From a virus (lineage: Duplodnaviria; Heunggongvirae; Uroviricota; Caudoviricetes): a stretch of DNA of 10,226 bases. Position numbers and translations under genes: made by a program. A model generated the notes under the pieces. That model was not told where the DNA came from. It did no database searches and saw only the letters and a program-made list of their open reading frames with translations. Where the stretch lies: IMG/VR virus record IMGVR_UViG_2681813004_000013, positions 1 to 10,226 of that record; one strand, given 5' to 3'. The first letter of the stretch is position 1; every line of letters begins with the position of its first letter. This document shows, one piece after another, positions 1 to 10,226 of this stretch.

Positions 1-233
1 TTAACCTGGTCGCATTTTTCCTTCGACAGCTTCATTCCCGGTATGACGGGCTTACCATCCACCATTGTGGCACCACGACAGATGGTCCATATACCGGAAC
101 CATCGCGGTATGCCGTAGTGTGGTTACCCTCTTTTTCATCCAGAAACTGGTCAAGTATTTGAGGAGCAGATGCGCCTGCTCCAATCAGCGCCAGAACGAC
201 CGCTGACAGGCCGTATTTGATTTTTGCGTTCAT
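1..233 (-). CDS. SAR endolysin (phage 21 R / P1 Lyz-type lysozyme), N-terminal 77 codons; the CDS continues past the left window edge
   Basis: Minus-strand translation from the ATG at 233..231 gives MNAKIKYGLSAVVLALIGAGASAPQILDQFLDEKEGNHTTAYRDGSGIWTICRGATMVDGKPVIPGMKLSKEKCDQV. It stays open to position 1, so it is absent from the ORF track (no stop). The Gly/Ala-rich, weakly hydrophobic N-terminus looks like a signal-anchor-release domain. The E-x8-D-x5-T catalytic spacing (EGNHTTAYRDGSGIWT) matches phage 21-type lysozymes. It lies downstream of a pinholin gene. No obvious SD precedes the ATG. Confidence 0.85.
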   Translation of the reverse strand, partial: MNAKIKYGLSAVVLALIGAGASAPQILDQFLDEKEGNHTTAYRDGSGIWTICRGATMVDGKPVIPGMKLSKEKCDQV

Positions 234-338
234 GGATATTTATCAGGATTTATCGGTTTCTGAACCCTGGATATGTTTATCTGTCCCGGCCTGTTGAATC
301 AGGCGGGGAAAAGGTAAAGACAATCAAGAGGATTATTT

Positions 339-611
339 ATGGACAATAACACCATTTCTCTACAGGAGTTGCTCGACTGCATTTCCAGGCTTCGGGATGA
401 TGTAAATGCCCTCACTGTTGCATTTTCATATCTGGCTTTCTCAATTCCCAAAGAACAAATGAAACCAACACTGGCATCGCTTCTGCTTGAGTCACGCAAC
501 CCCAAATGGTCCCAGGAACAACAAAATTCTTTCAAGTGGCTGGCGGCATTACTGGAAGAAAAATATGCTGGTAAAATTACCATTTCGGTGGAGTCTTCAG
601 AGAACCAGTAA
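339..611 (+). CDS. Hypothetical 90-aa soluble, probably helical protein; the only plus-strand gene, sitting inside the lysis cassette
   Basis: ATG at 339 is preceded by AAGAGGA (326..332) at good spacing. The translation has protein-like composition, whereas the antisense ORF 299..646 looks like a shadow. I recognise no family. The upstream promoter is only weak (TTGAAT at 294..299, no convincing -10). Confidence 0.5.
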   Translation: MDNNTISLQELLDCISRLRDDVNALTVAFSYLAFSIPKEQMKPTLASLLLESRNPKWSQEQQNSFKWLAALLEEKYAGKITISVESSENQ

Positions 612-921
612 TTCTTCCCGGTAGCTTTCCTTTGTAGGTTATCCACACATTATGCGCCTCTAAAATTACGGGGCGCTTTTCCGGCGACTGCTCACTCCCT
701 TCACATAACCCGGCAGCAACATCCAGGAAGACCTGTCTGATGCTCCTTCTGGCTGCTGCCTCATAAAACTCCAGCGCGGCACCTTCAACACGGTCCAGCG
801 AGATGTCCAGGTCAAAAATTTCACCGTCAAAGCGTTTTTTGTCCCGTAACGCTAAAGTTACCGTAACTTTATTCTCAAAATTGCGGATCCCTTTCACAAT
901 CAGTTCATAGTTTTGAGTCAT
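577..921 (-). CDS. DUF1327 / YdfR-like prophage protein
   Basis: MTQNYELIVKGIRNFENKVTVTLALRDKKRFDGEIFDLDISLDRVEGAALEFYEAAARRS closely resembles my recollection of K-12 Qin prophage YdfR. The position (holin, DUF1327, lysozyme) matches Qin essQ-ydfR-rrrQ. A GGGGAGAG SD lies within the last holin codons. Confidence 0.8.
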   Translation of the reverse strand: MTQNYELIVKGIRNFENKVTVTLALRDKKRFDGEIFDLDISLDRVEGAALEFYEAAARRSIRQVFLDVAAGLCEGSEQSPEKRPVILEAHNVWITYKGKLPGRITGSLKTPPKW

Positions 922-925
922 TGAA

Positions 926-1141
926 TTACTCTCCCCGTGCAGCCTTACGCTTGTCTTCTTTAATCTTGAAATAAAGGTTTGTCAGATACGTCAGCAAGCC
1001 AAATACCAGACTACCCAGCACACCTATTGCCGCCCACTGTGAGGGCGTGACTTTATCGAGCAACTGTAAAAACCAGTACCCGGCACTACCTGCTGAGGTG
1101 CCATAGGCGACACCCGTTGTTAACTTATCCATGGATTTCAT
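926..1141 (-). CDS. Class II pinholin, phage 21 S21-like, with dual-start motif
   Basis: I trimmed ORF-track entry 926..1204 to the start at 1141. This gives [71 protein letters not shown] (71 aa). It is near-identical, as I remember it, to S21, including the Met1-Lys-Ser-Met4 antiholin/holin dual start. GAGGTGGGG lies directly upstream. It is paired with a SAR endolysin. Confidence 0.9.
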
Positions 1142-1176
1142 AACCCCACCTCGCAGATGCGGGTGCTGTGTAATGG

Positions 1177-1202
1177 AAATAAAAAGGCCACCTGACGTGG
1201 CC
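1177..1202 (-). terminator. Rho-independent terminator between the methylase remnant and the holin gene
   Basis: The minus strand reads GGCCAC-gtcag-GTGGCC followed by TTTTTATTT (plus-strand ggccac 1186..1191, gtggcc 1197..1202, A-run 1177..1185). Confidence 0.75.
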
Positions 1203-1208
1203 ACCAGA

Positions 1209-2141
1209 TTATTTCCCCACCAGCTCGTTTATCTCTTTCACTGTCTGGTTAAACCGCTCTGACTCAAGCTCAACACCTAAGGCCCGACGCCCCAGCGCCA
1301 TTGCTGCTTTTATTGTGGAACCGGATCCCATAAAAAAATCAGCAACCAGATCACCTGGTCGACTACTGGCATTGATTATTTGCCTGAGCATATCCGCCGG
1401 TTTCTCACACGGATGTTTCCCCGGGTAGAACTGAACGGGTTTATGCATCCAGACATCGGTATAAGGCACGGAGACTGATACGGAGAAATAGCGCCGGAGA
1501 GATTTAAACTCATCCAGCAATTCAGAATATTTGCGATTCAGTGAATCATAAGATGCCACCAGCTGGTGGTGTGGTTGTTCCAGTTGTTGTTCCTGAAACT
1601 TCTCTGCCGCTATACGGGAAAACAGTGCCTGTAACTTCCGATAGTCAGCCTCATTCGGCAACTGCCACTGACTGGCACCAAACCAGTGGGAAACCATATT
1701 TTTCTTACCTGTGGCTTCGGCAATTTGTTTTGCCGTTATACCCAGTTCGGCACGAGCATCCCTGAAATACGATATCAGCGGTGCCATTATGTGCTGTTTG
1801 AGTTCCCTTTCTTTTGCCGCATAGCCGTCACTTTTGCCGCGATATGGCCCCTGGTAATGTTCAGCAAACAGAACGCGCTCTGTGGCAGGAAAATATGCGC
1901 GCTGACTTTCTTTATTACACCCATTCCAACGTCCGGACGGCTTCGCCCAGATGATATGGTTAAGCACGTTGAAACGTTCACGCATCATGATCTCAATATC
2001 AGATGCCAGGCGATGCCCACAGAACAGGTAAAGGCTTCCGGCAGGTTTTAACACCCGCCAGAACTGGGCCAGACAGTGGTCCAGCCACTTAAGGTAATCT
2101 TCGTCCCCTTTCCACTGATTGTCCCAACCGTTAGGTTTCAC
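1209..2141 (-). pseudogene. 5'-truncated beta-class (N6-adenine/N4-cytosine) DNA methyltransferase
   Basis: The C-terminal part carries HPCEKP and FFMGSGST (AdoMet motif I), as expected for beta-class order. The N-terminal DPPY-type motif IV is absent, and the ORF-track start is a GTG at 2141..2139 with no SD. The reading frame upstream runs straight into tRNA sequence. By analogy with CcrM-like enzymes, roughly the first 50 or more residues are missing (inference). Confidence 0.65.
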
Positions 2142-2144
2142 CTT

Positions 2145-2179
2145 CAGTCTGCTCCCTTTGGCCGCTCGGGAACCCCACC
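2145..2179 (-). pseudogene. 5' half of a tRNA-Tyr gene (positions 1 to G34), truncated in the anticodon
   Basis: The minus strand reads GGTGGGGTTCCCGAGCGGCCAAAGGGAGCAGACTG. As I recall the sequence, this equals the acceptor 5' strand, D arm, anticodon-stem 5' strand and C32-U33-G34 of E. coli tRNA-Tyr (tyrT/U/V). Similarity ends abruptly after G34, and no T arm or 3' acceptor strand follows. Confidence 0.8.
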
Positions 2180-2187
2180 GGACTTGA

Positions 2188-2263
<76 letters not shown>

Positions 2264-2265
2264 AC

Positions 2266-2341
2266 TGGACCGCCACCGGGGACTCGAACCTCGCACACTC
2301 AACTTAAAGGGTTGACGCTCTTTCCTGATGGCTAGTGGCGG
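2266..2341 (-). tRNA. Aberrant tRNA-like gene (76 nt, CCA encoded); anticodon loop CCUUUAA, nominal anticodon UUU with C33
   Basis: The acceptor stem is perfect (CCGCCAC / GTGGCGG, then T-CCA). The anticodon stem TCAAC/GTTGA is intact, and a T loop TTCGAGT is present. The D stem has only 2 clean pairs (GCCA vs GAGC), the T stem has an A.C mismatch, position 33 is C instead of the near-universal U, and position 1 is C. It could be a degenerate argN-like tRNA or a functional non-canonical tRNA. Confidence 0.55.
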
Positions 2342-2342
2342 T

Positions 2343-2418
2343 TGGTGGCCCTTGCTGGATTTGAACCAGCGACCTGGCGATTATGAGTCGCTCGCTCTCA
2401 CCACTGAGCTAAAGGGCC
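2343..2418 (-). tRNA. tRNA-Ile2-like (anticodon CAU, ileX/ileZ type), 76 nt with CCA
   Basis: GGCCCTT / TA / GCTC-AGTGGTGA-GAGC / G / AGCGA-CTCATAA-TCGCC / AGGTC / GCTGG-TTCAAAT-CCAGC / AAGGGCC-A-CCA. It is very similar to my recollection of E. coli ileX, including C4 and C5 in the acceptor stem. Lambdoid and Stx phages carry an ileZ at this position. A tRNA-Met cannot be excluded from sequence alone. Confidence 0.85.
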
Positions 2419-2428
2419 GAGCCAAAAA

Positions 2429-2457
2429 ATAATAATCAGATGAAAATCAATAATCAA
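2429..2457 (-). promoter_or_regulatory. Candidate sigma70 promoter for the tRNA cassette
   Basis: The minus strand has TTGATT (2457..2452), a 17-nt spacer, then TATTAT (2434..2429). The predicted start, near 2422, is a few nt upstream of the tRNA-Ile 5' end (2418). The -35 overlaps the last codons of the AraC-type gene. Confidence 0.45.
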
Positions 2458-3160
2458 GCCCTTGCCTGGATACATATCTGTCTGGCGGGAAGCCATAATA
2501 GCGGTGAAATACAGAAATAAAGTAGGACCTGCTTGAATAACCGCATTTTTCTGCTATAGCCTGTCCATATCCATGCCGGGAACATAACATATTTACAGCA
2601 ACACGCATCCGCTCTTCCAGCAACAAGCGACTGAACATGCCCCCTTCATTTTTCAGTTTTGTCTTTAACAAACTCTCACTCATATGCAACTGTAGAGCAA
2701 TCGCACCAAGCGTCCAGCTTGCTGATATATCTGTCTGAATTATCGCCCTGACTTTGGCACTTATGCTGGATAAACATCCACTTAAAAACAATGACATCCG
2801 TTCATCTGTTTCAAACAGAGACAGGCAGGCCATCATAAGAAACATATCCGTGGCCTCTCCGGAAAATCCCTGGCTGGTAATTAAAGCCGCAGCCAACGCA
2901 GGATTGTTGGGTTCCAGCAACAGGTAAAGCGGAATGTCAGTCAGACGAGTCCTCGTCAGCTTATGCTGACTTTCCAGATATTGACTTACGACGGATTCGC
3001 TTATATCGACAATTTTAACTTTGCCATAATGCATAAGGAAAAGCTCCCTGATGCATTTGGTGGCCAGAACAACTGAGCCTGGCTTAAGTGACAACGTATC
3101 CTTTTCAAGAAAAATATTAATTGGGGAGCAAACCATGATAACTGAACAGACAACAGCCAT
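2447..3160 (-). CDS. AraC/XylS-family transcriptional regulator (GadX/GadW/YdeO/AppY-like subgroup; prophage moron of the PatE/Psr type)
   Basis: The C-terminal ~100 aa carry the twin HTH signature (WTLGAIALQLHMSESLLKTKLKNEGGMFSRLLLEERMRVAVNMLC...IAEKCGYSSRSYFISVFHRYYGFPPDRY). The gene is visibly AT-rich compared with its neighbours. The start is uncertain (ATG at 3160 or 3136; both have weak SDs). Confidence 0.85.
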   Translation of the reverse strand: MAVVCSVIMVCSPINIFLEKDTLSLKPGSVVLATKCIRELFLMHYGKVKIVDISESVVSQYLESQHKLTRTRLTDIPLYLLLEPNNPALAAALITSQGFSGEATDMFLMMACLSLFETDERMSLFLSGCLSSISAKVRAIIQTDISASWTLGAIALQLHMSESLLKTKLKNEGGMFSRLLLEERMRVAVNMLCSRHGYGQAIAEKCGYSSRSYFISVFHRYYGFPPDRYVSRQGLDY

Positions 3161-3195
3161 TATAATTTTACTTTCATTAGCAATTGGTTAGCTCA

Positions 3196-3226
3196 ATTAT
3201 AGCCCCAAAAGGTAAATTATCATCAA
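3196..3226 (-). promoter_or_regulatory. Possible promoter of the AraC-type gene
   Basis: The minus strand has a consensus TATAAT (3201..3196) with TTGATG (3226..3221) 19 nt upstream, which is a suboptimal spacer. It lies just downstream of the terminator at 3281..3307. Confidence 0.3.
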
Positions 3227-3280
3227 CACATAAGCAAAGGACTGACAGGTGTCGCCCCCCACCAGCCGCCCATTCACCAC

Positions 3281-3307
3281 AAATAAAAAGCCTTCAGGAC
3301 TGAAGGC
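3281..3307 (-). terminator. Rho-independent terminator overlapping the stop codon of the small wHTH gene
   Basis: The minus strand reads GCCTTCAG-tc-CTGAAGGC followed by TTTTTATTTG. The stop codon TGA (3296..3294) lies inside the hairpin. Confidence 0.7.
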
Positions 3308-3491
3308 GTCTGTAACAACCGCACTGATAGTCTGCCAGACCCGCCATAACAAGTTGGGTCAGTATTAACTGGCAGCGTTCGCGTGAAAGGTAAGTATTCT
3401 GCGCAATCTCCCCGACTGTCGCCGGTTCGGTAACGCTTAATTCATCAAACACAACTCTGGCGGTTTCTGTCATATCCTGCTGTTTCAGCAT
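3294..3491 (-). CDS. Small (65 aa) winged-helix protein, PapI/FaeA-like by pattern
   Basis: MLKQQDMTETARVVFDELSVTEPATVGEIAQNTYLSRERCQLILTQLVMAGLADYQ has the length and layout of PapI/FaeA-type small wHTH regulators (name-tag helix, then xxEIAxxxxLS, then recognition helix, then LxxxGL). GAAAGGG lies upstream of the ATG. The family assignment is from memory only. Confidence 0.55.
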   Translation of the reverse strand: MLKQQDMTETARVVFDELSVTEPATVGEIAQNTYLSRERCQLILTQLVMAGLADYQCGCYRRLQS

Positions 3492-3613
3492 GTCTTTTTA
3501 CCCTTTCCGGTTAACGTGACATACCAATAACTCTTGTCCAAAAAGCCAGCAAGCAGAAAGACCGGTATTCGCAACCACCAGCGTATTTAACGCCCCGTGC
3601 CGTTTTTCAGTCA

Positions 3614-3637
3614 TAAAAAAACCCGCAAAAAGCGGGC
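3614..3637 (-). terminator. Rho-independent terminator after the ORF6N gene
   Basis: The minus strand reads CCCGC-TTTTT-GCGGG followed by TTTTTTTAT (plus-strand cccgc 3622..3626, gcggg 3632..3636, A-run 3615..3621). Confidence 0.7.
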
Positions 3638-3734
3638 TCTTTCAAATGTCCATGTCTGCTATTCGCCTCGCGGTACAGCTTTGCGAAGCGTACCGGAATT
3701 GAAGCAGTTTATGGCTAAAATTGCAAGAACTTTT

Positions 3735-4346
3735 TTAAAGCTGCATCAGCCTTTCCACCAGTTTATCTCTGCGAACAACAAACCAACCATTGGCTCTCGC
3801 CAGTTCCAGCCATGACTCAAGGGAAATAACAATATCATCATCCCGCAACTGAATTGTGGAAACAGTGACACCGCCTCGCTGATAACAGAGAACTCGCGTG
3901 TCGTAACTTTTCTGGCATGAAGCTGGCGCTGACGGATCCTTTTGTCTGAAATAGCACTCTTCCAGTTTTTCGAACACATCCCACGCCTGATCGGTTTCGA
4001 GCATTTTGGCGTGACGGGCTGCTCCGCGTTCTGTCCAGAGAATGAGGGAGCGGGCTTTCGGGGAAATTTGTAACCCTCTTAAAGATGGTTGCAAATTTTG
4101 TGAGTTACTTAAAGTAACCCGCAAATTTTGTGAGTAGTTTAAAGCTACCCGCAATTCTTTAAGGTCATTACCAACAACTTTGAAAAAGTGTTTCCCTTCA
4201 ACGAAGCGTACTTTGTTCTCATGATGATTCTGGCGAATGCGCACCGGCTCAGTGCCGTAAAGCTGCGCCAAAAGTTCGGTGGTAATAACAGGAATCTGGT
4301 TATGGGTGATCGGGGAGAGAGTTTCAACAGAAATTTGAGTTGTCAT
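3735..4346 (-). CDS. ORF6N/KilA-N-family DNA-binding protein (antirepressor-like), first gene after pR'-tR'
   Basis: The N-terminus IPVITTELLAQLYGTEPVRIRQNHHENKVRFVEGKHFFKVVGNDLKEL and the later SLILWTERGAARHAKML follow the ORF6N pattern (VMLDxDLAELYGVETKxLNQxVKRNxxRFPEDFMFQL...AFTEQGVAMLS). AGAGGG lies upstream of the ATG at 4346. Confidence 0.75.
   Translation of the reverse strand: MTTQISVETLSPITHNQIPVITTELLAQLYGTEPVRIRQNHHENKVRFVEGKHFFKVVGNDLKELRVALNYSQNLRVTLSNSQNLQPSLRGLQISPKARSLILWTERGAARHAKMLETDQAWDVFEKLEECYFRQKDPSAPASCQKSYDTRVLCYQRGGVTVSTIQLRDDDIVISLESWLELARANGWFVVRRDKLVERLMQL
4079..4168. repeat. Imperfect tandem repeat, three copies with an exact 30-bp period, in frame inside the ORF6N CDS
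   Basis: The copies start at 4079, 4109 and 4139: ttaaagatggttgcaaattttgtgagttac / ttaaagtaacccgcaaattttgtgagtagt / ttaaagctacccgcaattctttaaggtcat. They encode the decapeptide series LRVALNYSQN / LRVTLSNSQN / LQPSLRGLQI. Confidence 0.85.
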
Positions 4347-4504
4347 AATGACGCCCTCTGGTGGTTTCTTAATAACTCACCACCGACGACGCCAATCATC
4401 TGGTGGTGAACTGTGCGGGGTTGGCGTAACCGGGAAACCGACCGGCGCGGATCTCTCCGCCCCCACACAGCCCACCATAATTCAGATGTGCGCGTGCATA
4501 CGAC

Positions 4505-4529
4505 AATAAAAAACACGCTCGCGGCGTGT
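4505..4529 (-). terminator. tR'-like rho-independent terminator of the late-promoter leader
   Basis: The minus strand reads ACACGC-cgcga-GCGTGT followed by TTTTTTATT (plus-strand acacgc 4513..4518, gcgtgt 4524..4529). Confidence 0.75.
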
Positions 4530-4585
4530 ATCTGTCGCGGTCTCTATCCAGGACGCCAATCCCGACGCCAGATTTTGCTGGCGCG
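4506..4585 (-). ncRNA. Short (~80 nt) constitutive pR' leader transcript (lambda 6S / StxS-like position)
   Basis: It is bounded by the predicted start about 7 nt after the -10 (near 4584) and by the terminator at 4505..4529. It contains a 5' hairpin CGCCAG-caaaat-CTGGCG (4582..4565). Both ends are inferred, not measured. Confidence 0.45.
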
Positions 4586-4590
4586 TGAGG

Positions 4591-4620
4591 AATATAGCCC
4601 CGGATAACAGATTGAGTCAA
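4591..4620 (-). promoter_or_regulatory. pR'-type late promoter
   Basis: The minus strand has TTGACT (4620..4615), an 18-nt spacer, then TATATT (4596..4591). The -35 contains the stop codon of the Q-like gene. A short terminated leader follows, which is the canonical lambdoid Q / pR' / tR' layout. Confidence 0.7.
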
Positions 4621-5183
4621 CAGACGGTTTTTAGATCCCCGGAAGAGAATGCATCACGCATCGGCAGATAGAGCATAAACTCTGCCATTTTCAACCACGC
4701 ATCTATGCGATTACGGCACGTGGCGTAACACCACTCAGGGTGTGAATCATTCAGCAATTCAGCCATTTTGCGCTTAGTCATCCCCCGCCCCACATAACGC
4801 TGACTCAGAACATTGAGCAGCCCGGGATAACCTGCCAGTACTTCACCAATAACCCTGTCGATTATTAACGCCTCTGAATCGGTACAATGTGCCAGCCAGC
4901 TTTTTTGATTGCCGTTGATCATATCCCGCAAAAAAGCCTCAAGTTCAGGTTTGTCCAGACCCGCTTTTTTCATCCTCCGGAGCGCCTCGTTAATTGCCGT
5001 TTTTGTCAGCTTTTTAGAGGTCAGTAATTGGTTGAACATATTTCCCGTCTTACCGTCGCCAATATACGACCAACGCCCCCACATACGCAGTTTCCCCTGG
5101 ATCCAGACACTTTCCAGCGTTTTCAGGCGTAAATGCTCACCGCTTTTGCCTGTAATTTCCGGGTATATCATATTTATGCTCAC
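4617..5183 (-). CDS. Putative late-gene antiterminator (Q-like; resembles DUF1133-type prophage antitermination proteins)
   Basis: The evidence is mainly positional: the gene is directly after rusA and directly before pR'/tR'. The translation (…LRMWGRWSYIG…EALRRMKKAGLDKPELEAFLRDM…) resembles proteins annotated as antitermination proteins in E. coli prophages, by recollection and with low certainty. The start is either the GTG at 5183 (GTGA overlap with the rusA stop) or the ATG at 5171. Confidence 0.65.
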   Translation of the reverse strand: MSINMIYPEITGKSGEHLRLKTLESVWIQGKLRMWGRWSYIGDGKTGNMFNQLLTSKKLTKTAINEALRRMKKAGLDKPELEAFLRDMINGNQKSWLAHCTDSEALIIDRVIGEVLAGYPGLLNVLSQRYVGRGMTKRKMAELLNDSHPEWCYATCRNRIDAWLKMAEFMLYLPMRDAFSSGDLKTVC

Positions 5184-5545
5184 TCACTTTCAATTTTGTA
5201 AATCTTCACGCCCAGCCGCCCAACAGAAACGAGCTGACCGCGCACAATATTGATTTCATCAAACTGCTCGTCGTCTATGAGAAGTCCGGCATGCGTCAGC
5301 GCATCCAGCGGTGCTTTCAGAATGTTGTCCAGGTCACGGCGGCGCTTATCCGGTGGCTCTGCAATAATTTTTATTGCCAGCCTTCCGGACAGGTTTAATT
5401 TCAACCTCTGCTGGCGAACAATAAGCGCCACATCACGGCGATAACGCTTTCCGGCCTCCGAGATGAAATACGTATTGCCATGACGTCGCCAGTAGGTATT
5501 CACCGTCGGCGGGTAAGGCAAAACAAATTCTATCCGTTCAGTCAT
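5180..5545 (-). CDS. rusA: Crossover junction endodeoxyribonuclease RusA (Holliday junction resolvase)
   Basis: MTERIEFVLPYPPTVNTYWRRHGN...PPDKRRRDLDNILKAPLDALTHAGLLIDDEQ matches the RusA signature (…PDRRRRDLDN…K…DAL…DD.Q…). Its ATG immediately follows the upstream stop (TGAATG). Confidence 0.9.
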   Translation of the reverse strand: MTERIEFVLPYPPTVNTYWRRHGNTYFISEAGKRYRRDVALIVRQQRLKLNLSGRLAIKIIAEPPDKRRRDLDNILKAPLDALTHAGLLIDDEQFDEINIVRGQLVSVGRLGVKIYKIESE

Positions 5546-6604
5546 TCATGCTTTCCACTTCAGGACACCCGAATTTCTCGCGTGCATTAAAAAACGAATC
5601 AGCAACAACAGCTGGCTGCCGTGTTTCTCTTCAAATTCTCTTACCCCGGCATGTAGCTCGTTATGGCAGCGTCTACACAACGGAATAACAAACAAATCGT
5701 CAGCCTTTGTTCCCGTTCCCCCCAGTCCATGACCAATGATGTGATGCGGATCATCTGCCTGATTGCCACACGCCATGCACTTCTGCGTTTTTACCCACCG
5801 CGTGTATATCGGCATCTCTTCACGTTGTGGTTTCTGGCGTCTGAGGTATTGAGCAGGAGACTCCGGATCAACAGTTATGCTGACCACCGCTTTTTCCTGT
5901 TGTGGGTTCTGTTGCTGGTGGGCGTAAGGCAACGGCGCAAGATTTTTTGTGCGCTGCTTCAGTATGCTGGTGGCGCTCTGCTCTCCCGGTACGATGTCGC
6001 TTTCACGGTACATTGAGCGGATTTTTTCCGCACGCAACCCCAGCGAACGACGTAATACCGCTTCCGGTAGCGCGTCCGCCACCTGATTGCGGACCGCCCA
6101 CCAGGATAATTCAGCCAGAGATAATTCCCGTTCCTGTGCACCACTTATTGCGTGACGTATGACGTCAATCATCCAGGCTGTCAGATTTTGTTGAGCAAGC
6201 TGCCCGAGTGATTCGGATGTCTGGTCACGCAGCTGGTTGTCGCAGTGCCAGCACAACACCATTGCGCCGGTACCATAACGGTGAATGACGGTTTCACTGT
6301 GGTGATAATCGCCGTGTGGCCACTGGCAGGATTTAACATGACGCAGTAACCAGTCAGACAATGCGCCAGCGCCACCAGCAGCACGAATCACTCGTTCGTC
6401 GCTGAAAAATGGCAGTAATGATTTATCCTCCGCCAGCGGCTGGCGAACGGCAGGAACGACCCCAGACGGCAGATTACGCATGCTTTTCGGTTCCGGCTCC
6501 ACCAGTACCCGGGTATTGTGGAATACCGGCATGGATTCACGGCCCGGCTTAACGATCACCAGCCCGAGTTCCGGTACCAGAACAGGTCGAAGTAATACCC
6601 GCAC
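5546..6604 (-). CDS. DUF968 / YdfU-like protein with a C-terminal HNH-like zinc motif
   Basis: The C-terminus CMACGNQADDPHHIIGHGLGGTGTKADDLFVIPLCRRCHNELH has a CxxC…HH…CxxCH…H arrangement. The size and the position upstream of rusA match Qin YdfU. The GTG start at 6604 is preceded by GGAGG, which overlaps the upstream stop (GGAGGTAACGTG). Confidence 0.8.
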   Translation of the reverse strand: MRVLLRPVLVPELGLVIVKPGRESMPVFHNTRVLVEPEPKSMRNLPSGVVPAVRQPLAEDKSLLPFFSDERVIRAAGGAGALSDWLLRHVKSCQWPHGDYHHSETVIHRYGTGAMVLCWHCDNQLRDQTSESLGQLAQQNLTAWMIDVIRHAISGAQERELSLAELSWWAVRNQVADALPEAVLRRSLGLRAEKIRSMYRESDIVPGEQSATSILKQRTKNLAPLPYAHQQQNPQQEKAVVSITVDPESPAQYLRRQKPQREEMPIYTRWVKTQKCMACGNQADDPHHIIGHGLGGTGTKADDLFVIPLCRRCHNELHAGVREFEEKHGSQLLLLIRFLMHARNSGVLKWKA

Positions 6605-6605
6605 G

Positions 6606-6890
6606 TTACCTCCAGAGCCGTTGCTGGAATGTGCGGGACGGACGCGGTGGGCGTTCGGAGTAAGGAAGCCTGACGGAGATTATCCAGTGACGATAATCGA
6701 GGCTGAGGGCTTCCCTAAACTCATACCCACGCCTGCGGTAGTTCTGAATCAGCCATTCGGCCTGTTCTTCAGTGCATGGGTCATGCTGATACCAGTCATA
6801 TTTGAATGTGTGAGAACGCCGCCCGTGCCTACTGGCAAAGACGGCTGAATTATCAGAATTGTTAATTTTTTTGTAATGCACCACTACCAT
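6606..6890 (-). CDS. Hypothetical protein (~92-94 aa)
   Basis: The ORF is translationally coupled to the downstream DUF968 gene. GAGGA abuts the ATG at 6890, so one of the GTG codons 2-3 codons later is the better-spaced start. I recognise no family. Confidence 0.55.
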   Translation of the reverse strand: MVVVHYKKINNSDNSAVFASRHGRRSHTFKYDWYQHDPCTEEQAEWLIQNYRRRGYEFREALSLDYRHWIISVRLPYSERPPRPSRTFQQRLWR

Positions 6891-6950
6891 CCTCGTAATG
6901 GTGCGACAGACGCCAGTTGTTCAGGCTGGCTTTAACTATAGCATTATAAT

Positions 6951-7118
6951 CTAGTCTTTCTTAATGCTGAAGTGACTGACCGAATCCGCATGCGATTCTT
7001 TGGTGATCAGAATAACATCGGGTGGCAATGGCATTACGATAAATTCACCATTCTCAAGAACTATTACTTCATAATTACCAGATACAGAAAGCGCAGCAAT
7101 TAATTCCTTATCATTCAT
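6951..7118 (-). CDS. Hypothetical 55-aa protein (below the ORF-track size cut-off)
   Basis: My own translation is MNDKELIAALSVSGNYEVIVLENGEFIVMPLPPDVILITKESHADSVSHFSIKKD, ending at TAG (6953..6951). Its own SD is weak, but an 11-codon uORF with a strong SD ends 9 nt upstream. It fills an otherwise empty gap in the operon. Confidence 0.4.
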   Translation of the reverse strand: MNDKELIAALSVSGNYEVIVLENGEFIVMPLPPDVILITKESHADSVSHFSIKKD

Positions 7119-7248
7119 AACAAAACCCTATGAACTTTTAACATTTCCCCTTAAGGGGTCCATCCCTCTTCTCCCTGCGCGCTACTTAAGTATTTTTGAT
7201 TCTATTCCGGCACCTTCAAAAAGCTCAAACGTCTTGAAAATAAACAAC

Positions 7249-7270
7249 AAAAAACCCGCCGAAGCGGGTT
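7249..7270 (-). terminator. Rho-independent terminator of the hok mRNA
   Basis: The minus strand reads AACCCGC-ttcg-GCGGGTT followed by TTTTGTTGTTT. Confidence 0.8.
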
Positions 7271-7338
7271 AAGTGCGGGTGCGTTGAGGATGCCTGACAC
7301 ATCAGAGGTGGCGAGGGATTTCTCCCCCGCCGGGTCTC

Positions 7339-7494
7339 TTACTCCTCAGGTTCGTAAGCTGTGAAGACAGCGACCTCCGTCTGGCCGGTTCGGATTCGTA
7401 CCTCGCAGAGGTCTTTCCTCGTTACCAGTGCCGTCACTATGACGGTTAAACAGATGACGATCAGGGCGATTAACATCGCCTTTTGCTGCTTCAT
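7339..7494 (-). CDS. hok: Hok-family type I toxin (51 aa), HokD/RelF-like
   Basis: My own translation is MKQQKAMLIALIVICLTVIVTALVTRKDLCEVRIRTGQTEVAVFTAYEPEE. This matches my recollection of E. coli HokD (RelF). An AAGGAG SD lies upstream. The ORF is below the ORF-track size cut-off. Confidence 0.95.
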   Translation of the reverse strand: MKQQKAMLIALIVICLTVIVTALVTRKDLCEVRIRTGQTEVAVFTAYEPEE

Positions 7495-7550
7495 AGCCTG
7501 CTTCTCCTTGACCTTTCGGTCCGTAAGAGGCTAATCTCTATGTGTCGCAT
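7491..7550 (-). CDS. mok: mok-like leader ORF (19 codons) ending in an ATGA overlap with the hok start
   Basis: ATG CGA CAC ATA GAG ATT AGC CTC TTA CGG ACC GAA AGG TCA AGG AGA AGC AGG CTA TGA. GAGG lies 8 nt upstream of its ATG. The region aligns with the R1 mok start (…AGCCUCUUAC…CAAGGAGAAG…). It is much shorter than R1 mok. Confidence 0.45.
   Translation of the reverse strand: MRHIEISLLRTERSRRSRL
7508..7537 (+). promoter_or_regulatory. sok antisense promoter
   Basis: The plus strand has TTGACC (7508..7513), an 18-nt spacer, then TAATCT (7532..7537). The context taagaggcTAATCT parallels the R1 sok promoter region as I recall it. Confidence 0.5.
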
Positions 7551-7610
7551 AGATATGGCCTCAGATTAATGTTAAGCGTCTTGCCGGACGCGTAATGTTA
7601 ACTGGGGCTT
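7544..7610 (+). ncRNA. sok: Sok-like antisense RNA (approximate ends)
   Basis: It would start about 7 nt after the -10 and be antisense to the mok SD and start codon (7550..7548 and upstream). The 3' end is not well defined: the hairpin GCGTC-ttgccg-GACGC at 7576..7591 lacks a clean U tract. Confidence 0.45.
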
Positions 7611-7668
7611 TTCTCTGTCTGCCTTACGGCGGCATGCCCGAGGCAGACAGCCTCAAGCACCCGCAGCA

Positions 7669-7696
7669 ATTCTACTTAACTCTCGCTTTACAGCAA
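7669..7696 (-). promoter_or_regulatory. hok mRNA promoter
   Basis: The minus strand has TTGCTG (7696..7691), a 16-nt spacer, then TAGAAT (7674..7669). The predicted 5' end, GGGUGCUUGAGG (7662..7651), is complementary, with one bulge, to CCUCAACGCACCC near the 3' end (plus-strand 7277..7289). This is the fold-back-inhibition pairing typical of hok mRNAs. Confidence 0.5.
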
Positions 7697-7737
7697 ACCG
7701 TTTTTGCCCGATATGGGAATTCCCATACGGAATGAAT

Positions 7738-7842
7738 TCAGTTCCCCAGGCGATCCATCAAAAACACAACCAGGCAGTAAACACCCACAACAGCAATAAC
7801 AGCCAGAGCGCCTTCCATTACCAGTGAAATATCATCCGACAT
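7738..7842 (-). CDS. 34-aa single-pass hydrophobic peptide (unannotated small ORF)
   Basis: My own translation is MSDDISLVMEGALAVIAVVGVYCLVVFLMDRLGN. A strong SD, AAGGGAGGG, lies 3-4 nt before the ATG. A candidate promoter lies upstream (TTGCTA, 18-nt spacer, TATATG, within about 7870..7905). I recognise no family. Confidence 0.5.
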   Translation of the reverse strand: MSDDISLVMEGALAVIAVVGVYCLVVFLMDRLGN

Positions 7843-7951
7843 ATTCCCTCCCTTGGTGTGAATTCCGGCGAACGTTTTTACCCCCACCGACAAATAACAT
7901 ATACTAGAAAAGCAATAGCTATAGCAACGCCTGCAAATGCATCGGGCCGGC

Positions 7952-8785
7952 TCATTGGTGCGCCCCCTGTATCGCTTCTACTGCGATCTGACTGGCGTAT
8001 TTGTTAATGGTAACGATAAGTTCTTGCTCGGCCTCATCCAGACAACCACCGATACCTCGCCTGTCACCTTCAGAAGCATCGAAATCTGCACGAACCCTGG
8101 CGACCTTCAGGATTGCGGACAACACCTCATCAGGGATTGCCGGAGAGTTGGTTGACGTTTCCGAGGTTATCCGAAAATTATTGGTTGACGAATTCTTATT
8201 TTCCCGAAAGTTTTCGGCATGAAGCATGGCGGTGTTATACCCATCCGCGAAAATCTCTGCTTCTTCGTTATTCAGTTCGGCACCAAGTTTAAGCGCAATA
8301 GCTTTTGCCATTGAGGCGGTAATTTGATGGCATGGCTGACGTCCATGAAGCATGGCGTCGCTCCGCTCTATGCCATCCAGCGCAATTCGAAGCGCATGAA
8401 TTGTAGTAATGCTATCGTTTGGGGTTATTCCGTATCGTTCGAATACAGCGATATGGTTGCGCATAATCGCAGGTGTAAGCTCTTTGTAAGCAAGAGCAAG
8501 AGGTCCAGATACATCGTTCAGCACTACCGTCATCGGTGAGGCGGCGTAGACTTCAATAATCCCAGTATCAATAGGCCATTCCCCATCCTTGATATAGTAA
8601 CTTGTTCCGTCAACTTGCTGTTCTACAATGTGGAAAGCACCTATTGGTTCTGCTTCCAGCGATGCCAGTGCAATTTTGAATAACTCGCCCTCTACCCGTG
8701 CCATCCCTGAATTGGGGTAGCATTTCGCAATCGCTATTTTTAATTTGGCTTCTTCGATTAATTTCTCTTTGGTTAATTCAGTCAC
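7952..8785 (-). CDS. Hypothetical 277-aa protein
   Basis: This is a long ORF with protein-like composition. It has an N-terminal helical segment ending ALASLEAEP, reminiscent of Ead/Ea22-like prophage proteins, and an S/T/N-rich linker (NKNSSTNNFRITSETSTNS). It has a GTG start at 8785. No confident family assignment. Confidence 0.7.
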   Translation of the reverse strand: MTELTKEKLIEEAKLKIAIAKCYPNSGMARVEGELFKIALASLEAEPIGAFHIVEQQVDGTSYYIKDGEWPIDTGIIEVYAASPMTVVLNDVSGPLALAYKELTPAIMRNHIAVFERYGITPNDSITTIHALRIALDGIERSDAMLHGRQPCHQITASMAKAIALKLGAELNNEEAEIFADGYNTAMLHAENFRENKNSSTNNFRITSETSTNSPAIPDEVLSAILKVARVRADFDASEGDRRGIGGCLDEAEQELIVTINKYASQIAVEAIQGAHQ

Positions 8786-8794
8786 TTTTCATTA

Positions 8795-8816
8795 CCGCCC
8801 TTTCGGGCGGCCTCCT
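8795..8816 (-). promoter_or_regulatory. AGGAGG followed by a GAAA-tetraloop hairpin upstream of the 277-aa gene (possible hairpin-bridged ribosome binding site)
   Basis: The minus strand reads AGGAGG (8816..8811), CCGCCC-gaaa-GGGCGG (8810..8795), taatgaaaa, then GTG (8785). No U tract follows the hairpin, so it is not a canonical terminator. Confidence 0.4.
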
Positions 8817-8820
8817 GACA

Positions 8821-9033
8821 TTAATCGTTGTGATAACTCATAGCTTCATTTGCAGCATCAACTGGATCAACATCCCACCAGCAATAATTTGGGTCGACAC
8901 CTTCAGGTGTCCACGGCTCTAATTCATTTTTTGCTACATTCTCGTCACCAGTAATTTTAAAAATCTGCTCAGAGAATTTTTTTACCCACTCGTTATATTT
9001 TTCCGCGTTAATGGTTTTCTGTGTATTTAACAT
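8821..9033 (-). CDS. Hypothetical 70-aa acidic, Trp-rich protein
   Basis: GGAGG lies 7 nt upstream of the ATG at 9033. The gene is markedly AT-rich. The C-terminal segment is EPWTPEGVDPNYCWWDVDPVDAANEAMSY. I recognise no family. Confidence 0.65.
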   Translation of the reverse strand: MLNTQKTINAEKYNEWVKKFSEQIFKITGDENVAKNELEPWTPEGVDPNYCWWDVDPVDAANEAMSYHND

Positions 9034-9078
9034 AGATATACCTCCGGTTAAGGATTAAATTTTATTTACAGTGCTGAT

Positions 9079-9438
9079 TTAATATTCAGTTCTGGCTTTT
9101 GTTGCCCTGCGTATCCGCGCTTTCGCGTTACGCTCAATCTGAATTAGCTTTTCTATATTTTTTCGCCTTTCCTGTTCCTCCTGGCGCAATAGCCTTACAT
9201 CATCTGCCAGTCTGGTTTCTCTTTTAGCCACAGAGAGCATCCAGTCAAACGGCTCCACAACTGCACCACAGATTTTGCAGCGGACCTGACGCTCTTTTTC
9301 GTCAACCCGGACAGAAGCGTGATGGCAGTATGGTCTTTCCGATGGCTCATAAAGAAAATTAACCTGATTACGTGGGTCATCCTCTTTTACCGGAAATAAA
9401 ACGATATTGCTTAACTCATCTTCTGGTTTTATTTCCAT
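9079..9438 (-). CDS. Hypothetical 119-aa protein with a Zn-ribbon-like motif and a basic coiled-coil tail
   Basis: I trimmed ORF-track entry 9079..9489 to the ATG at 9438, which is preceded by AAGGAGAGGAG. It contains YCHH…(13 aa)…CKIC, followed by a heptad-like, charged C-terminus (RLLRQEEQERRKNIEKLIQIERNAKARIRR). Confidence 0.7.
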   Translation of the reverse strand: MEIKPEDELSNIVLFPVKEDDPRNQVNFLYEPSERPYCHHASVRVDEKERQVRCKICGAVVEPFDWMLSVAKRETRLADDVRLLRQEEQERRKNIEKLIQIERNAKARIRRATKARTEY

Positions 9439-9495
9439 GCTCCTCTCCTTTGATGCGAATGCCAGCGATAATTGAAGCCTGATAGCCAATTTTAC

Positions 9496-9915
9496 TCACA
9501 GCCCCCCCTGATAATTTCCCTGATAAAACGCCAGCACTCGCTGCATAACTTCGCTCTTCCGGCACTCGCGACAGATTATATTCAGGCGCCTGTCGTAGCG
9601 ACGTATTTCTCCGTCTGGTAATGACCATATAAGGTCAGGATCAACCACAACCGGTTTCTTCAGCTTTGCCCTCGATAATTTTTTGCGGGCGTTTTGCCAG
9701 TCCTTACGAGCCTGTTCAGAGGGGAATAATCCGTAGCCTGAATTGTAAACATCACCACTGGCGACCAGTTCTCTGGCGAGAGTGCTTATGTAATACCTTG
9801 ATGCACCGGTTTTAGCCTCCAGAGCCCGTAACGTCTCGCGACCGCTCAGACGTACAAGTTCAATAACCTGCCCTTTAATTTTTTCTCGCTCTTCTTGTGT
9901 AAAAACTTTTGCCAC
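9496..9915 (-). CDS. 139-aa winged-helix protein (DUF977/FaeA-like prophage protein)
   Basis: The GTG start at 9915 is preceded by AGGAGG 4 nt upstream. The N-terminus QVIELVRLSGRETLRALEAKTGASRYYISTLARELVASGDV has a wHTH layout. The family name is from memory and has moderate certainty. Confidence 0.7.
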   Translation of the reverse strand: MAKVFTQEEREKIKGQVIELVRLSGRETLRALEAKTGASRYYISTLARELVASGDVYNSGYGLFPSEQARKDWQNARKKLSRAKLKKPVVVDPDLIWSLPDGEIRRYDRRLNIICRECRKSEVMQRVLAFYQGNYQGGL

Positions 9916-9955
9916 AAGTCCTCCTGAAAATTACCTCGTGACCTGAAATAAACAC

Positions 9956-10226
9956 TTACCCCCTGAAGCCCGGTGGAATTTCGGTATCCGGTTCAGAAAT
10001 ATGATTCACACAACGCTGGTTGTTCGTGCCGCTTACCGGGAGCAACCAGGGGTTTTCAAAATTTCGGTCCGGTCCAAAAAACGTCGTCGCTCGCTGAACA
10101 AATTCCGTTCCAGTTTTCCCGGTAACCGCCAGATATCTTGCGTAACGCCTCACGCCATCCAGCATGGCCTCTGGTGGCACCCCCTCGCGTAATCTGGCCT
10201 TCCAGGCACTGAAAGCGGATTTCTTC
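9956..10226 (-). CDS. C-terminal part of a phage replication-initiation-type protein (Phg_2220_C / DnaD-O-like C-terminus); the CDS continues past the right window edge
   Basis: The frame stays open upstream of the ORF-track GTG to the window edge (…KKSAFSAWKARLREGVPPEAMLDGVRRYARYLAVTGKTGTEFVQRATTFFGPDRNFENPW…). The pattern F..WKA…(role/date helix)…F…P..W..RW resembles the conserved phage replication-protein C-terminus. The position upstream of the nin-like genes fits. Confidence 0.6.
   Translation of the reverse strand, partial: KKSAFSAWKARLREGVPPEAMLDGVRRYARYLAVTGKTGTEFVQRATTFFGPDRNFENPWLLPVSGTNNQRCVNHISEPDTEIPPGFRG

Follow-up and report, generated by a model that had tools for sequence, protein, structure and literature searches.

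A psrB-type regulator gene beside a conserved 65-codon gene in the late leader of a lambdoid prophage

The stretch of DNA analysed here (hereafter the window) comprises positions 1 to 10,226 of the IMG/VR virus record IMGVR_UViG_2681813004_000013 (Caudoviricetes) and carries on its minus strand two neighbouring open reading frames (ORFs), one for a 237-aa protein of the AraC/XylS type and, upstream of it, a small one for a protein of 65 aa. Both are situated in the late leader of a lambdoid prophage, between the antiterminator gene Q with the late promoter pR' and the holin gene (ORF listing, Pfam; Table 1), and the lambdoid markers of the window are Q, RusA, holin and hok/sok (Pfam, Rfam). 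A prediction made earlier from the letters of the sequence (the original prediction) had placed the two genes between pR' and the lysis genes, a position borne out by Q and a promoter-like site on one side and a P21-type holin on the other, and had proposed that an AraC-family protein and a PapI/FaeA-like partner act together as a prophage-borne controller of host regulons. Our analysis leads to another reading, to which we assign a probability of about 0.85: it was insertion history that made the two genes neighbours, and they are not a functional pair, the one being a psrB allele and the other a phage backbone gene, in an ‘accessory slot’ of the late leader.

Protein domains were assigned with Pfam, RNA families with Rfam and tRNA genes with ARAGORN, and hairpins were folded with RNAfold; promoter-like sites were taken from a consensus scan, which found 4 in the window against 3.2 expected in shuffled sequences. 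All genome counts refer to 5426 complete Escherichia coli genomes, and the two genes were counted as adjacent where one place covered at least 80% of the two-gene query.

The AraC-type gene and its Psr relatives

The twin helix-turn-helix (HTH) character that had been ascribed to the 237-aa protein was confirmed: Pfam HTH_AraC was matched in two stretches (E 2.4e-13, above the gathering score) and HTH_18 over residues 155–230 (E 5.8e-10), as is typical of AraC/XylS proteins, the C-terminal ~100 aa of which contain two such motifs. A likeness to GadX and YdeO had also been suggested, and it is correct as homology, not as orthology. When the PDB was searched with the protein, the GadX DNA-binding domain (3MKL) was recovered at E 7e-19, and the nearest solved structures were this domain, Rns, CsvR and ToxT. 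Of the two NCBIfam models concerned (NF007407, NF007432), that for YdeO spans residues 1–229 (E 4e-31) with 108.5 bits against an equivalog cut-off of 348, and that for GadX covers the C-terminal half (E 1e-24) with 87 bits against a cut-off of 500. Both scores lie far under the cut-offs, and assignment as a YdeO or GadX orthologue was rejected. These two proteins are acid-resistance activators of the E. coli core genome, which according to the literature feed the same regulon as Psr, whereas the window gene is prophage-borne and a homologue only.

The resemblance to PatE and Psr proteins proved to be stronger than had been guessed. The window protein is identical at 234/237 positions (98.7%) to ECs_2191 of Sakai prophage Sp11 (re-extended to 237 aa), shares 98.7% identity with WP_000301797.1 of Xuzhou21, and is identical at 215/237 positions (90.8%) to ECs_1087 of Sp4, which lies next to pchA. 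Sakai Sp11 carries nleG5-2/6-2/2-3 and pchB, and we take it to be OI-57, going by its position and by the nleG locus tags. A third Sakai protein, ECs_0287 at the end of Sp1, is a full-length homologue with 37% identity over 235 aa (E 5e-54) and, to judge by its position, is presumably PatE (z0321, OI-8), a published activator of gadE/hdeA. It has in common with the window protein the YdeO-like N-terminal domain, the twin-HTH C-terminus and a prophage location, and differs in its low identity and in its site, which is the end of a degraded prophage and neither a Q-to-lysis leader nor the neighbourhood of a 65-aa gene.

ECs_1087 is named ‘psrA (ecs1087, Sp4)’ in a 2026 paper by the laboratory that defined the family (PMC13502914), and it was through such Sakai locus tags that we arrived at the labels PsrA and PsrB. 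PsrB (z2104, OI-57) and PsrA are 90% identical, and both are AraC/XylS regulators found in prophages only, alongside effector loci and Pch regulators (reviews PMC10877973, PMC8565820). By its sequence, the window gene is a gene for a Psr protein, of the YdeO/GadX branch, and a psrB-type allele; the allele follows from the identity values and by elimination. The window protein shares a 90%-identity cluster with the Psr comparison proteins; the names in this cluster are generic, and the label ‘Psr’ is absent from those of its members.

The Sp11 and Sp4 orthologues, likewise of 237 aa, occupy the same slot as the window gene, in the order Q, a variable gene, the 65-aa gene, the AraC gene, an ileZ-type tRNA cluster and late genes, and all related loci are prophages. 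Differences concern the protein itself (three residues substituted as compared with the Sp11 copy of O157), the tRNA genes (CAT, Lys and Thr in the window versus ileZ/argN/argO), the region downstream (a methylase remnant in the window versus TerB/NanS-p genes) and the c4-ant module lying upstream in the window. The association with effector and pch genes is seen on the orthologues' prophages, Sp4 (pchA) and Sp11 (pchB, nleG), the 10-kb window ending before the tail and effector region. As the original prediction had it, the gene is more AT-rich than its surroundings, albeit modestly (43.8% GC; remainder of the window 48.7%, small ORF 50%). Several lambda-like phages (Lambda_ev series, mEp332, ev099) encode more distant full-length Psr homologues (30–39% identity) near their right end, and P1-like phages encode such homologues too; among those phages only phiSTEC1575-Stx2k has a close copy (91.6%), directly upstream of tRNAs and stx2k.

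What Psr regulators do has been described in enterohaemorrhagic E. coli (EHEC). PsrA and PsrB raise the expression of GadE and YhiF and thereby indirectly repress the type III secretion system that the enterocyte effacement locus (LEE) encodes, and PsrB binds to the promoters of hdeA (−132 to −45) and gadE, raises acid resistance and improves survival in the mouse stomach (PMC10877973, PMC8565820). The psrA gene is regulated via the Hha/H-NS axis (PMC13502914), and control of this kind would be compatible with the AT-rich promoter region upstream of the window gene. As a 99%-identical orthologue, the window allele would be expected to bind the gadE and hdeA promoters and so to promote glutamate-dependent acid resistance, and may repress LEE type III secretion indirectly through GadE/YhiF.

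The 65-codon gene

The small ORF belongs to phrog_331, which is annotated as ‘unknown function’. Its conservation, on which the original prediction had made its own case depend, is extensive: 295 homologues were found at E<=1e-3 in Escherichia, Shigella, Salmonella, Klebsiella, Citrobacter and Buttiauxella, the ORF is intact (63–65 aa) in hundreds of 90%-identity clusters over these six genera, and the ratio of nonsynonymous to synonymous polymorphism (pN/pS) of 0.05–0.17 against four diverged E. coli copies points to purifying selection. Helix 3 (ERCQLILTQL) and two cysteines are invariant in the family, and the ATG is preceded by a plausible Shine-Dalgarno-like sequence, GGAAAGGG. Of the invariant cysteines, C40 is part of the recognition helix and C59 belongs to a conserved Y-Q-x-G-C motif; a third one, at residue 57, occurs in the window allele.

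It was considered whether the ORF might not encode a functional protein at all, the conserved feature being an RNA or terminator structure of the late leader. The stop codon is indeed part of such a structure: as had been predicted, the gene ends inside its own terminator, with the TGA lying within a 7-bp GC-rich hairpin (3307–3290) that is followed by TTTTTATTT. The pairing is GCCTTCA/TGAAGGC in E. coli and GCCTCCCT/AGGGAGGC in Klebsiella, that is, with compensatory changes across genera, and in Salmonella prophages the hairpin is retained via G-U pairs. The U-tract is weaker in Klebsiella and Salmonella (TTTCTGCTG; loci L019 and L022–L026, just after 3692/3695). These compensatory changes would suit an explanation by RNA structure, as would the lack of a predicted promoter for the ORF and a frameshift in the Sakai Sp4 copy (see below); the pN/pS values in all four comparisons, the wide occurrence of the intact ORF with its invariant helix 3, the Shine-Dalgarno sequence and the confidently modelled core of the protein make it very improbable. 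A known small RNA (sRNA) was also rejected as an explanation, no Rfam family being present inside 2447–3491.

The product had been described as winged helix-turn-helix (wHTH)-like. The ORF itself stands, and for the fold the indications come from sub-threshold Pfam matches and from structure prediction. In Pfam, TrmB was matched with E 0.003 and 17.8 bits, below the gathering threshold of 25.6, and DprA_WH and MarR_2 were matched below threshold as well; among the homologues the best E for TrmB was 3.3e-4, and DprA_WH was better in some (6.8e-6). TrmB (PF01978), the name used in NCBI annotation, was rejected as a family assignment on that score. An AlphaFold2 model built from a 24-sequence alignment had a predicted local distance difference test (pLDDT) score of 80, with 87–90 in the core, and showed helices at residues 2–18, 26–32 and 37–49 and a helix of lower confidence at 53–60, where the wing would be expected. 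Foldseek matched this model to wHTH domains of many families in the PDB (PcaR/IclR, Zα, IscR, LexA, MarR), all at E>0.3, and to similarly generic wHTH domains in BFVD (E>0.3), while phmmer found no PDB sequence match at E<=10 and no NCBIfam model was matched. We regard the small ORF as a genuine, conserved phage backbone gene, with a predicted fold of a generic winged-helix-like type.

The more specific designation of the protein as a PapI/FaeA-like mini-wHTH was not sustained. Pfam FaeA (PF04703) was missing among the matches of all 24 members of the small-protein family at E<=1, and alignment of the family with PapI by hhalign gave a probability of 1.3% (the PapI query being 100% identical to PDB 2HTJ); membership in PapI/FaeA was rejected on these grounds. 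The PapI homologue PefI (2JT1) does occur in the Foldseek list, at rank 38 with a template-modelling (TM) score of 0.64. PapI, FaeA and PefI resemble the small protein in their small size (77 aa, versus 65 aa here) and in a core predicted for it as three-helix and winged-helix-like; they differ from it in the FaeA match and at the C-terminus, which in the small protein is predicted as a low-confidence helix and not as a β-wing. The gene context is different, too: the sampled contexts of the small gene are those of the phage late leader, from Q to methylase, AraC or lysis genes, with no fimbrial operon among them. Genes of the PapI/FaeA family lie in chaperone-usher fimbrial operons or divergent from them, under control by Lrp and Dam GATC sites, whereas the partner with which the small gene is conserved is a PF01555 methylase of the phage late region.

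Insertion history and neighbourhood of the two genes

Pairwise comparison of the window with the DNA of a Shiga toxin (Stx) 2a phage revealed homology at 3258–3626 (the small gene and both of its terminators) and at 1240–2144 (methylase), and none over 2420–3257 (the AraC gene and its promoter). The homology with methylase-type phages breaks at ~3258, and the promoter-like site at 3196–3223 lies inside the cassette that these phages lack. On the other side, the methylase remnant is 80% identical over 312 aa to residues 39–350 of the 352-aa Stx2a-phage methylase. The full-length enzyme reads ...LIVTDPPYFKVKPEGW..., and the window aligns only from ...LKVKPNGW onward; the breakpoint is located directly after the catalytic DPPY (...TDPPY/FKVKPEGW in the full-length enzyme, the slash marking the break) and abuts tRNA-Thr (2144–2190). 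The methyltransferase, which the original prediction had called broken, has in fact lost its first 38 codons, the DPPY motif included. As shown by this comparison of sequences, a cassette of AraC gene and tRNA genes replaced the 5' untranslated region (UTR) and the first 38 codons of the methylase, and the ancestral neighbour of the small gene is still visible beyond the insertion as the methylase remnant. The AraC gene adjoins tRNA genes in all related loci, and in some loci the cassette stands after the small-gene terminator and before the methylase or late genes, while in others it is missing there; the AraC gene and the tRNAs are an accessory cassette, always at the same site.

In the window 28 nt separate the AraC stop from the tRNA genes, whose anticodons are CAT (Met according to ARAGORN, tRNA-Ile of the ileZ type in RefSeq relatives), Lys-TTT and Thr-TGT. 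Stx and Psr prophages usually have the set ileZ-argN-argO, and the closest relative (locus L001) has an extra tRNA-Gly. In methylase-linked loci (spacer of L003, L019 and L022), the 5' UTR of the methylase contains a second conserved sequence, AATGGGCGGCTGGTGGG...CCAGCC, that folds into a hairpin; of this sequence only the 5' half is left in the window, at 3232–3272, and the ~3258 breakpoint falls inside it. The presence in the window of EvrS, a published sRNA flanked by z1789, was judged unlikely; homology with Sakai Sp4 stops within the tRNA cluster, and the window thus does not have the Sp4 spacer past the tRNAs.

DNA of the AraC gene was detected in 830/5426 genomes at 1444 places, mostly in lineages of EHEC and Shiga toxin-producing E. 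coli (STEC; O157, O145, O111, O103, O121), and O157:H7 genomes have exactly two matching places. The small gene is about three times as widespread (2396/5426 genomes, 4406 places) and adjoins an intact PF01555 DNA methylase in 1915/5426 genomes. In Stx2a phages it is found in the order Q, ..., small gene, methylase, ileZ/argN/argO, stx2; the order in prophages of Salmonella and Klebsiella, whose Q families differ, is Q, small gene, methylase, holin. The 65-aa gene of Stx2 phages (Stx2a_1447 BAT32402.1; ‘TrmB family transcriptional regulator’ in phiP27) shares 94% amino-acid identity with that of the window and agrees with it in its flanking terminators and in its position after Q; there, an intact methylase, tRNAs and stx follow, whereas the window has the AraC–tRNA cassette and the truncated methylase. 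Upstream of psrA in Sakai Sp4, the small gene (ECs_1086; L007, 13344–13540) has suffered a 1-nt deletion and is shifted in frame after codon 49. A paralogue of the AraC gene in EH41 (68% DNA identity; L027, 4975–5700) is located in the same late region, not beside the small gene. It lies downstream of the small gene, methylase, tRNAs and a TolA-like gene, beside a second methylase fragment, as another AraC insertion at a methylase, and a paralogue of 68% identity is the best match in ~104 genomes.

We consider the small gene as backbone and not as a partner of the AraC gene because of its wider spread, because a methylase is its usual neighbour, and because a terminator and the homology breakpoint lie between the two genes. 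Several observations weigh against our reading as a whole. Seen from the AraC gene, the two genes do go together: in 725 of the ~726 genomes with a Psr-type gene of at least 90% identity, this gene follows the small gene directly, and in all of the contexts sampled for the small-protein allele found in the window (10/10) the AraC gene came next, although the upstream gene varied. Furthermore, the window allele differs from the O157 orthologue at 3 residues and its function is carried over from that orthologue, and promoters and expression timing are derived from consensus scans only. Finally, the reviews put psrA (z1789) on OI-50, and the re-assembled potC prophage of EDL933 (nleL, espN) is without it: no AraC gene follows the antiterminator in this OI-50-like, potC-integrated prophage (NZ_CP008957.1 1625000–1670000). 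The Tree laboratory assigns psrA to Sakai Sp4 (PMC13502914). The EDL933 discrepancy is probably a matter of assembly or nomenclature, and touches the A/B label, not the assignment to the Psr family.

The tight linkage seen from the AraC gene is what would be expected if the small wHTH protein and the AraC protein were a co-evolved two-component module, with the former as a PapI-like co-regulator of Psr or of the psr promoter, possibly in a methylation-dependent switch, and the PefI match would fit such a module. Seen from the small gene, the co-occurrence breaks down: most copies are accompanied by an intact methylase instead, in E. coli as well as in Salmonella and Klebsiella, and in Sakai a frameshift disrupts the copy that precedes psrA, an experimentally studied gene. 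Together with the negative FaeA and PapI comparisons, the conserved intrinsic terminator and breakpoint between the genes, and the AraC paralogue residing elsewhere in the late region, these data leave a co-evolved module with hardly any probability. We read the 10/10 linkage as the mark of a single insertion site, and a functional link may nevertheless exist. Of the controller originally proposed, the AraC half is upheld, as a Psr protein, and the pair is not. Similarly, the adjacency of small gene and methyltransferase that had been singled out is real and conserved, and the link to phase variation by PapI, Dam and Lrp fails on present evidence.

This adjacency could also mean that the small protein is a dedicated regulator or accessory of the PF01555 orphan methyltransferase next to it, for example in late expression control, and has itself been orphaned in the window. 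The succession of small gene, ~150 nt and methylase has been kept in prophages of Escherichia, Salmonella and Klebsiella with three Q families, its frequency in E. coli is high (see the counts above), and the spacer of methylase-linked loci contains the second hairpin-forming sequence. On the other hand, the small gene persists, intact and subject to purifying selection, in loci whose methylase is broken or missing (the window, O157 Sp11 and the Klebsiella locus L023), a terminator separates it from the methylase, and its product has generic wHTH matches only and no homology to known controller proteins; on balance, we find a dedicated methylase factor unlikely. A broader proposal, for which we see a slight chance, is that the 65-aa gene and its stop-codon terminator form a conserved late-leader element of lambdoid phages across Enterobacteriaceae, which would functionally control the adjacent PF01555 methyltransferase or Q-dependent read-through into toxin and lysis genes and would have been co-opted upstream of a virulence regulator in Psr prophages.

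Transcription signals, remaining features and significance

The original prediction had both genes fenced by terminators, which is true of the small gene and not of the AraC gene. Upstream of the small gene, the strong terminator at 3613–3641 is built of CCCGC-UUUUU-GCGGG, extended by A/U flanks and followed by U7 on the minus strand, and Stx2, Salmonella and Klebsiella loci have its equivalent upstream of their small gene; on the downstream side, the gene is closed by the stop-codon hairpin. No convincing terminator was found 3' of the AraC gene by hairpin scan and RNAfold, there being only a weak 5-bp hairpin within the coding end before tRNA-Met begins. The predicted TATAAT box is present upstream of the AraC start (3201–3196) as a perfect match to the consensus, with a context conserved in the O157 and Stx2k-phage copies; it should be noted that it is a consensus match only, from the scan with 4 sites found against 3.2 expected. 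For the small gene, no promoter passed the consensus scan, and an extended −10 element recognised by eye (TGgTATGTC) is too weak to claim. Both genes had been presented as a regulator moron. Presence or absence at a site and a deviant base composition, as expected of a moron, characterise the AraC–tRNA cassette and not the small gene; as to a promoter and terminator of its own, the AraC gene has the promoter-like site without a convincing terminator.

In a lysogen, only units with their own promoters would be expressed, psrB from its plausible promoter in the AT-rich spacer. During late lytic growth, Q-modified RNA polymerase coming from pR' would read through all terminators and transcribe the antirepressor gene, the small gene, psrB, the tRNAs and the lysis genes. 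The small gene would be expressed mainly at this late stage, by read-through from pR', since it is flanked by two terminators and lacks a convincing promoter of its own.

The other features of the region are listed in Table 1. The position of the probable pR' agrees with the 5' end of the isrK-like RNA at 4584, and this RNA is probably the short leader transcript from pR' to tR'. Taken together, the isrK RNA, c4-a1b1 target, C4 RNA and ORF6N antirepressor gene (3735–4597, minus strand) resemble the immI module of P1 or the isrK/anrP antirepressor module of Gifsy-1. A DUF1327 gene (Pfam) follows the holin gene in the order of transcription. Farther upstream, a hok/sok-type toxin–antitoxin locus occupies 7339–7662 on the minus strand, with a sok antisense RNA at 7492–7662 (Rfam, 105.9 bits) and a 51-aa Hok-like ORF at 7339–7494.

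Table 1. Features of the window from the antiterminator gene to the holin gene, in order of transcription
Feature	Position	Strand	Evidence
Q-type antiterminator gene	4617–5183	minus	Pfam DUF1133 E 7e-104, Phage_antitermQ
Promoter-like site TTGACT-18-TATATT, probable late promoter pR'	4591–4620	minus	Consensus scan; directly after Q gene
c4-a1b1 target	4545–4597	minus	Rfam
isrK-family RNA, short	4508–4584	minus	Rfam RF01394, 75.5 bits vs gathering score 50
Terminator-like hairpin ending isrK-family RNA	4513–4529	minus	Hairpin scan, RNAfold
C4 antisense RNA	4399–4482	minus	Rfam
ORF6N antirepressor gene	3735–4346	minus	Pfam, PHROG
Strong bidirectional intrinsic terminator between antirepressor gene and small ORF	3613–3641	both	RNAfold, folding free energy (dG) −18.2
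65-aa small ORF, phrog_331	3294–3491	minus	ORF listing; phrog_331 E 6e-37
Intrinsic terminator overlapping small-ORF stop	3281–3307	minus	Hairpin scan, RNAfold
Spacer from small ORF to AraC gene, 133 nt, 40.6% GC	TATAAT at 3196–3201	minus	
Promoter-like site ATGATA-16-TATAAT upstream of AraC gene	3196–3223	minus	Consensus scan
psrB-type AraC/XylS gene, 237 aa	2447–3160	minus	Pfam HTH_AraC, HTH_18; Psr identity
Three tRNA genes (anticodons CAT, TTT, TGT)	2188–2418	minus	ARAGORN, Rfam
5'-truncated PF01555 DNA methyltransferase remnant ORF	1209–2141	minus	Pfam; starts at profile position 20
P21-type holin gene	926–1204	minus	Pfam

The AraC gene is already characterised as a virulence and acid-resistance regulator, the link of prophage carriage to type III secretion and acid resistance through Psr regulators, to which the gene owes its biological importance, has been in print since 2011–2015, and the allele exists in hundreds of sequenced genomes; it thus brings nothing new by itself, and the overall finding is ordinary and known. 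What the locus illustrates is how the psr–tRNA cassette fills a slot normally held by a DNA methylase, and in this case cut a methylase immediately after its catalytic motif, next to a small gene that is found at this position in Shiga-toxin phages too, upstream of stx. Through regulators of the Psr family, the carriage of such prophages is tied in EHEC to type III secretion as well as to acid resistance.

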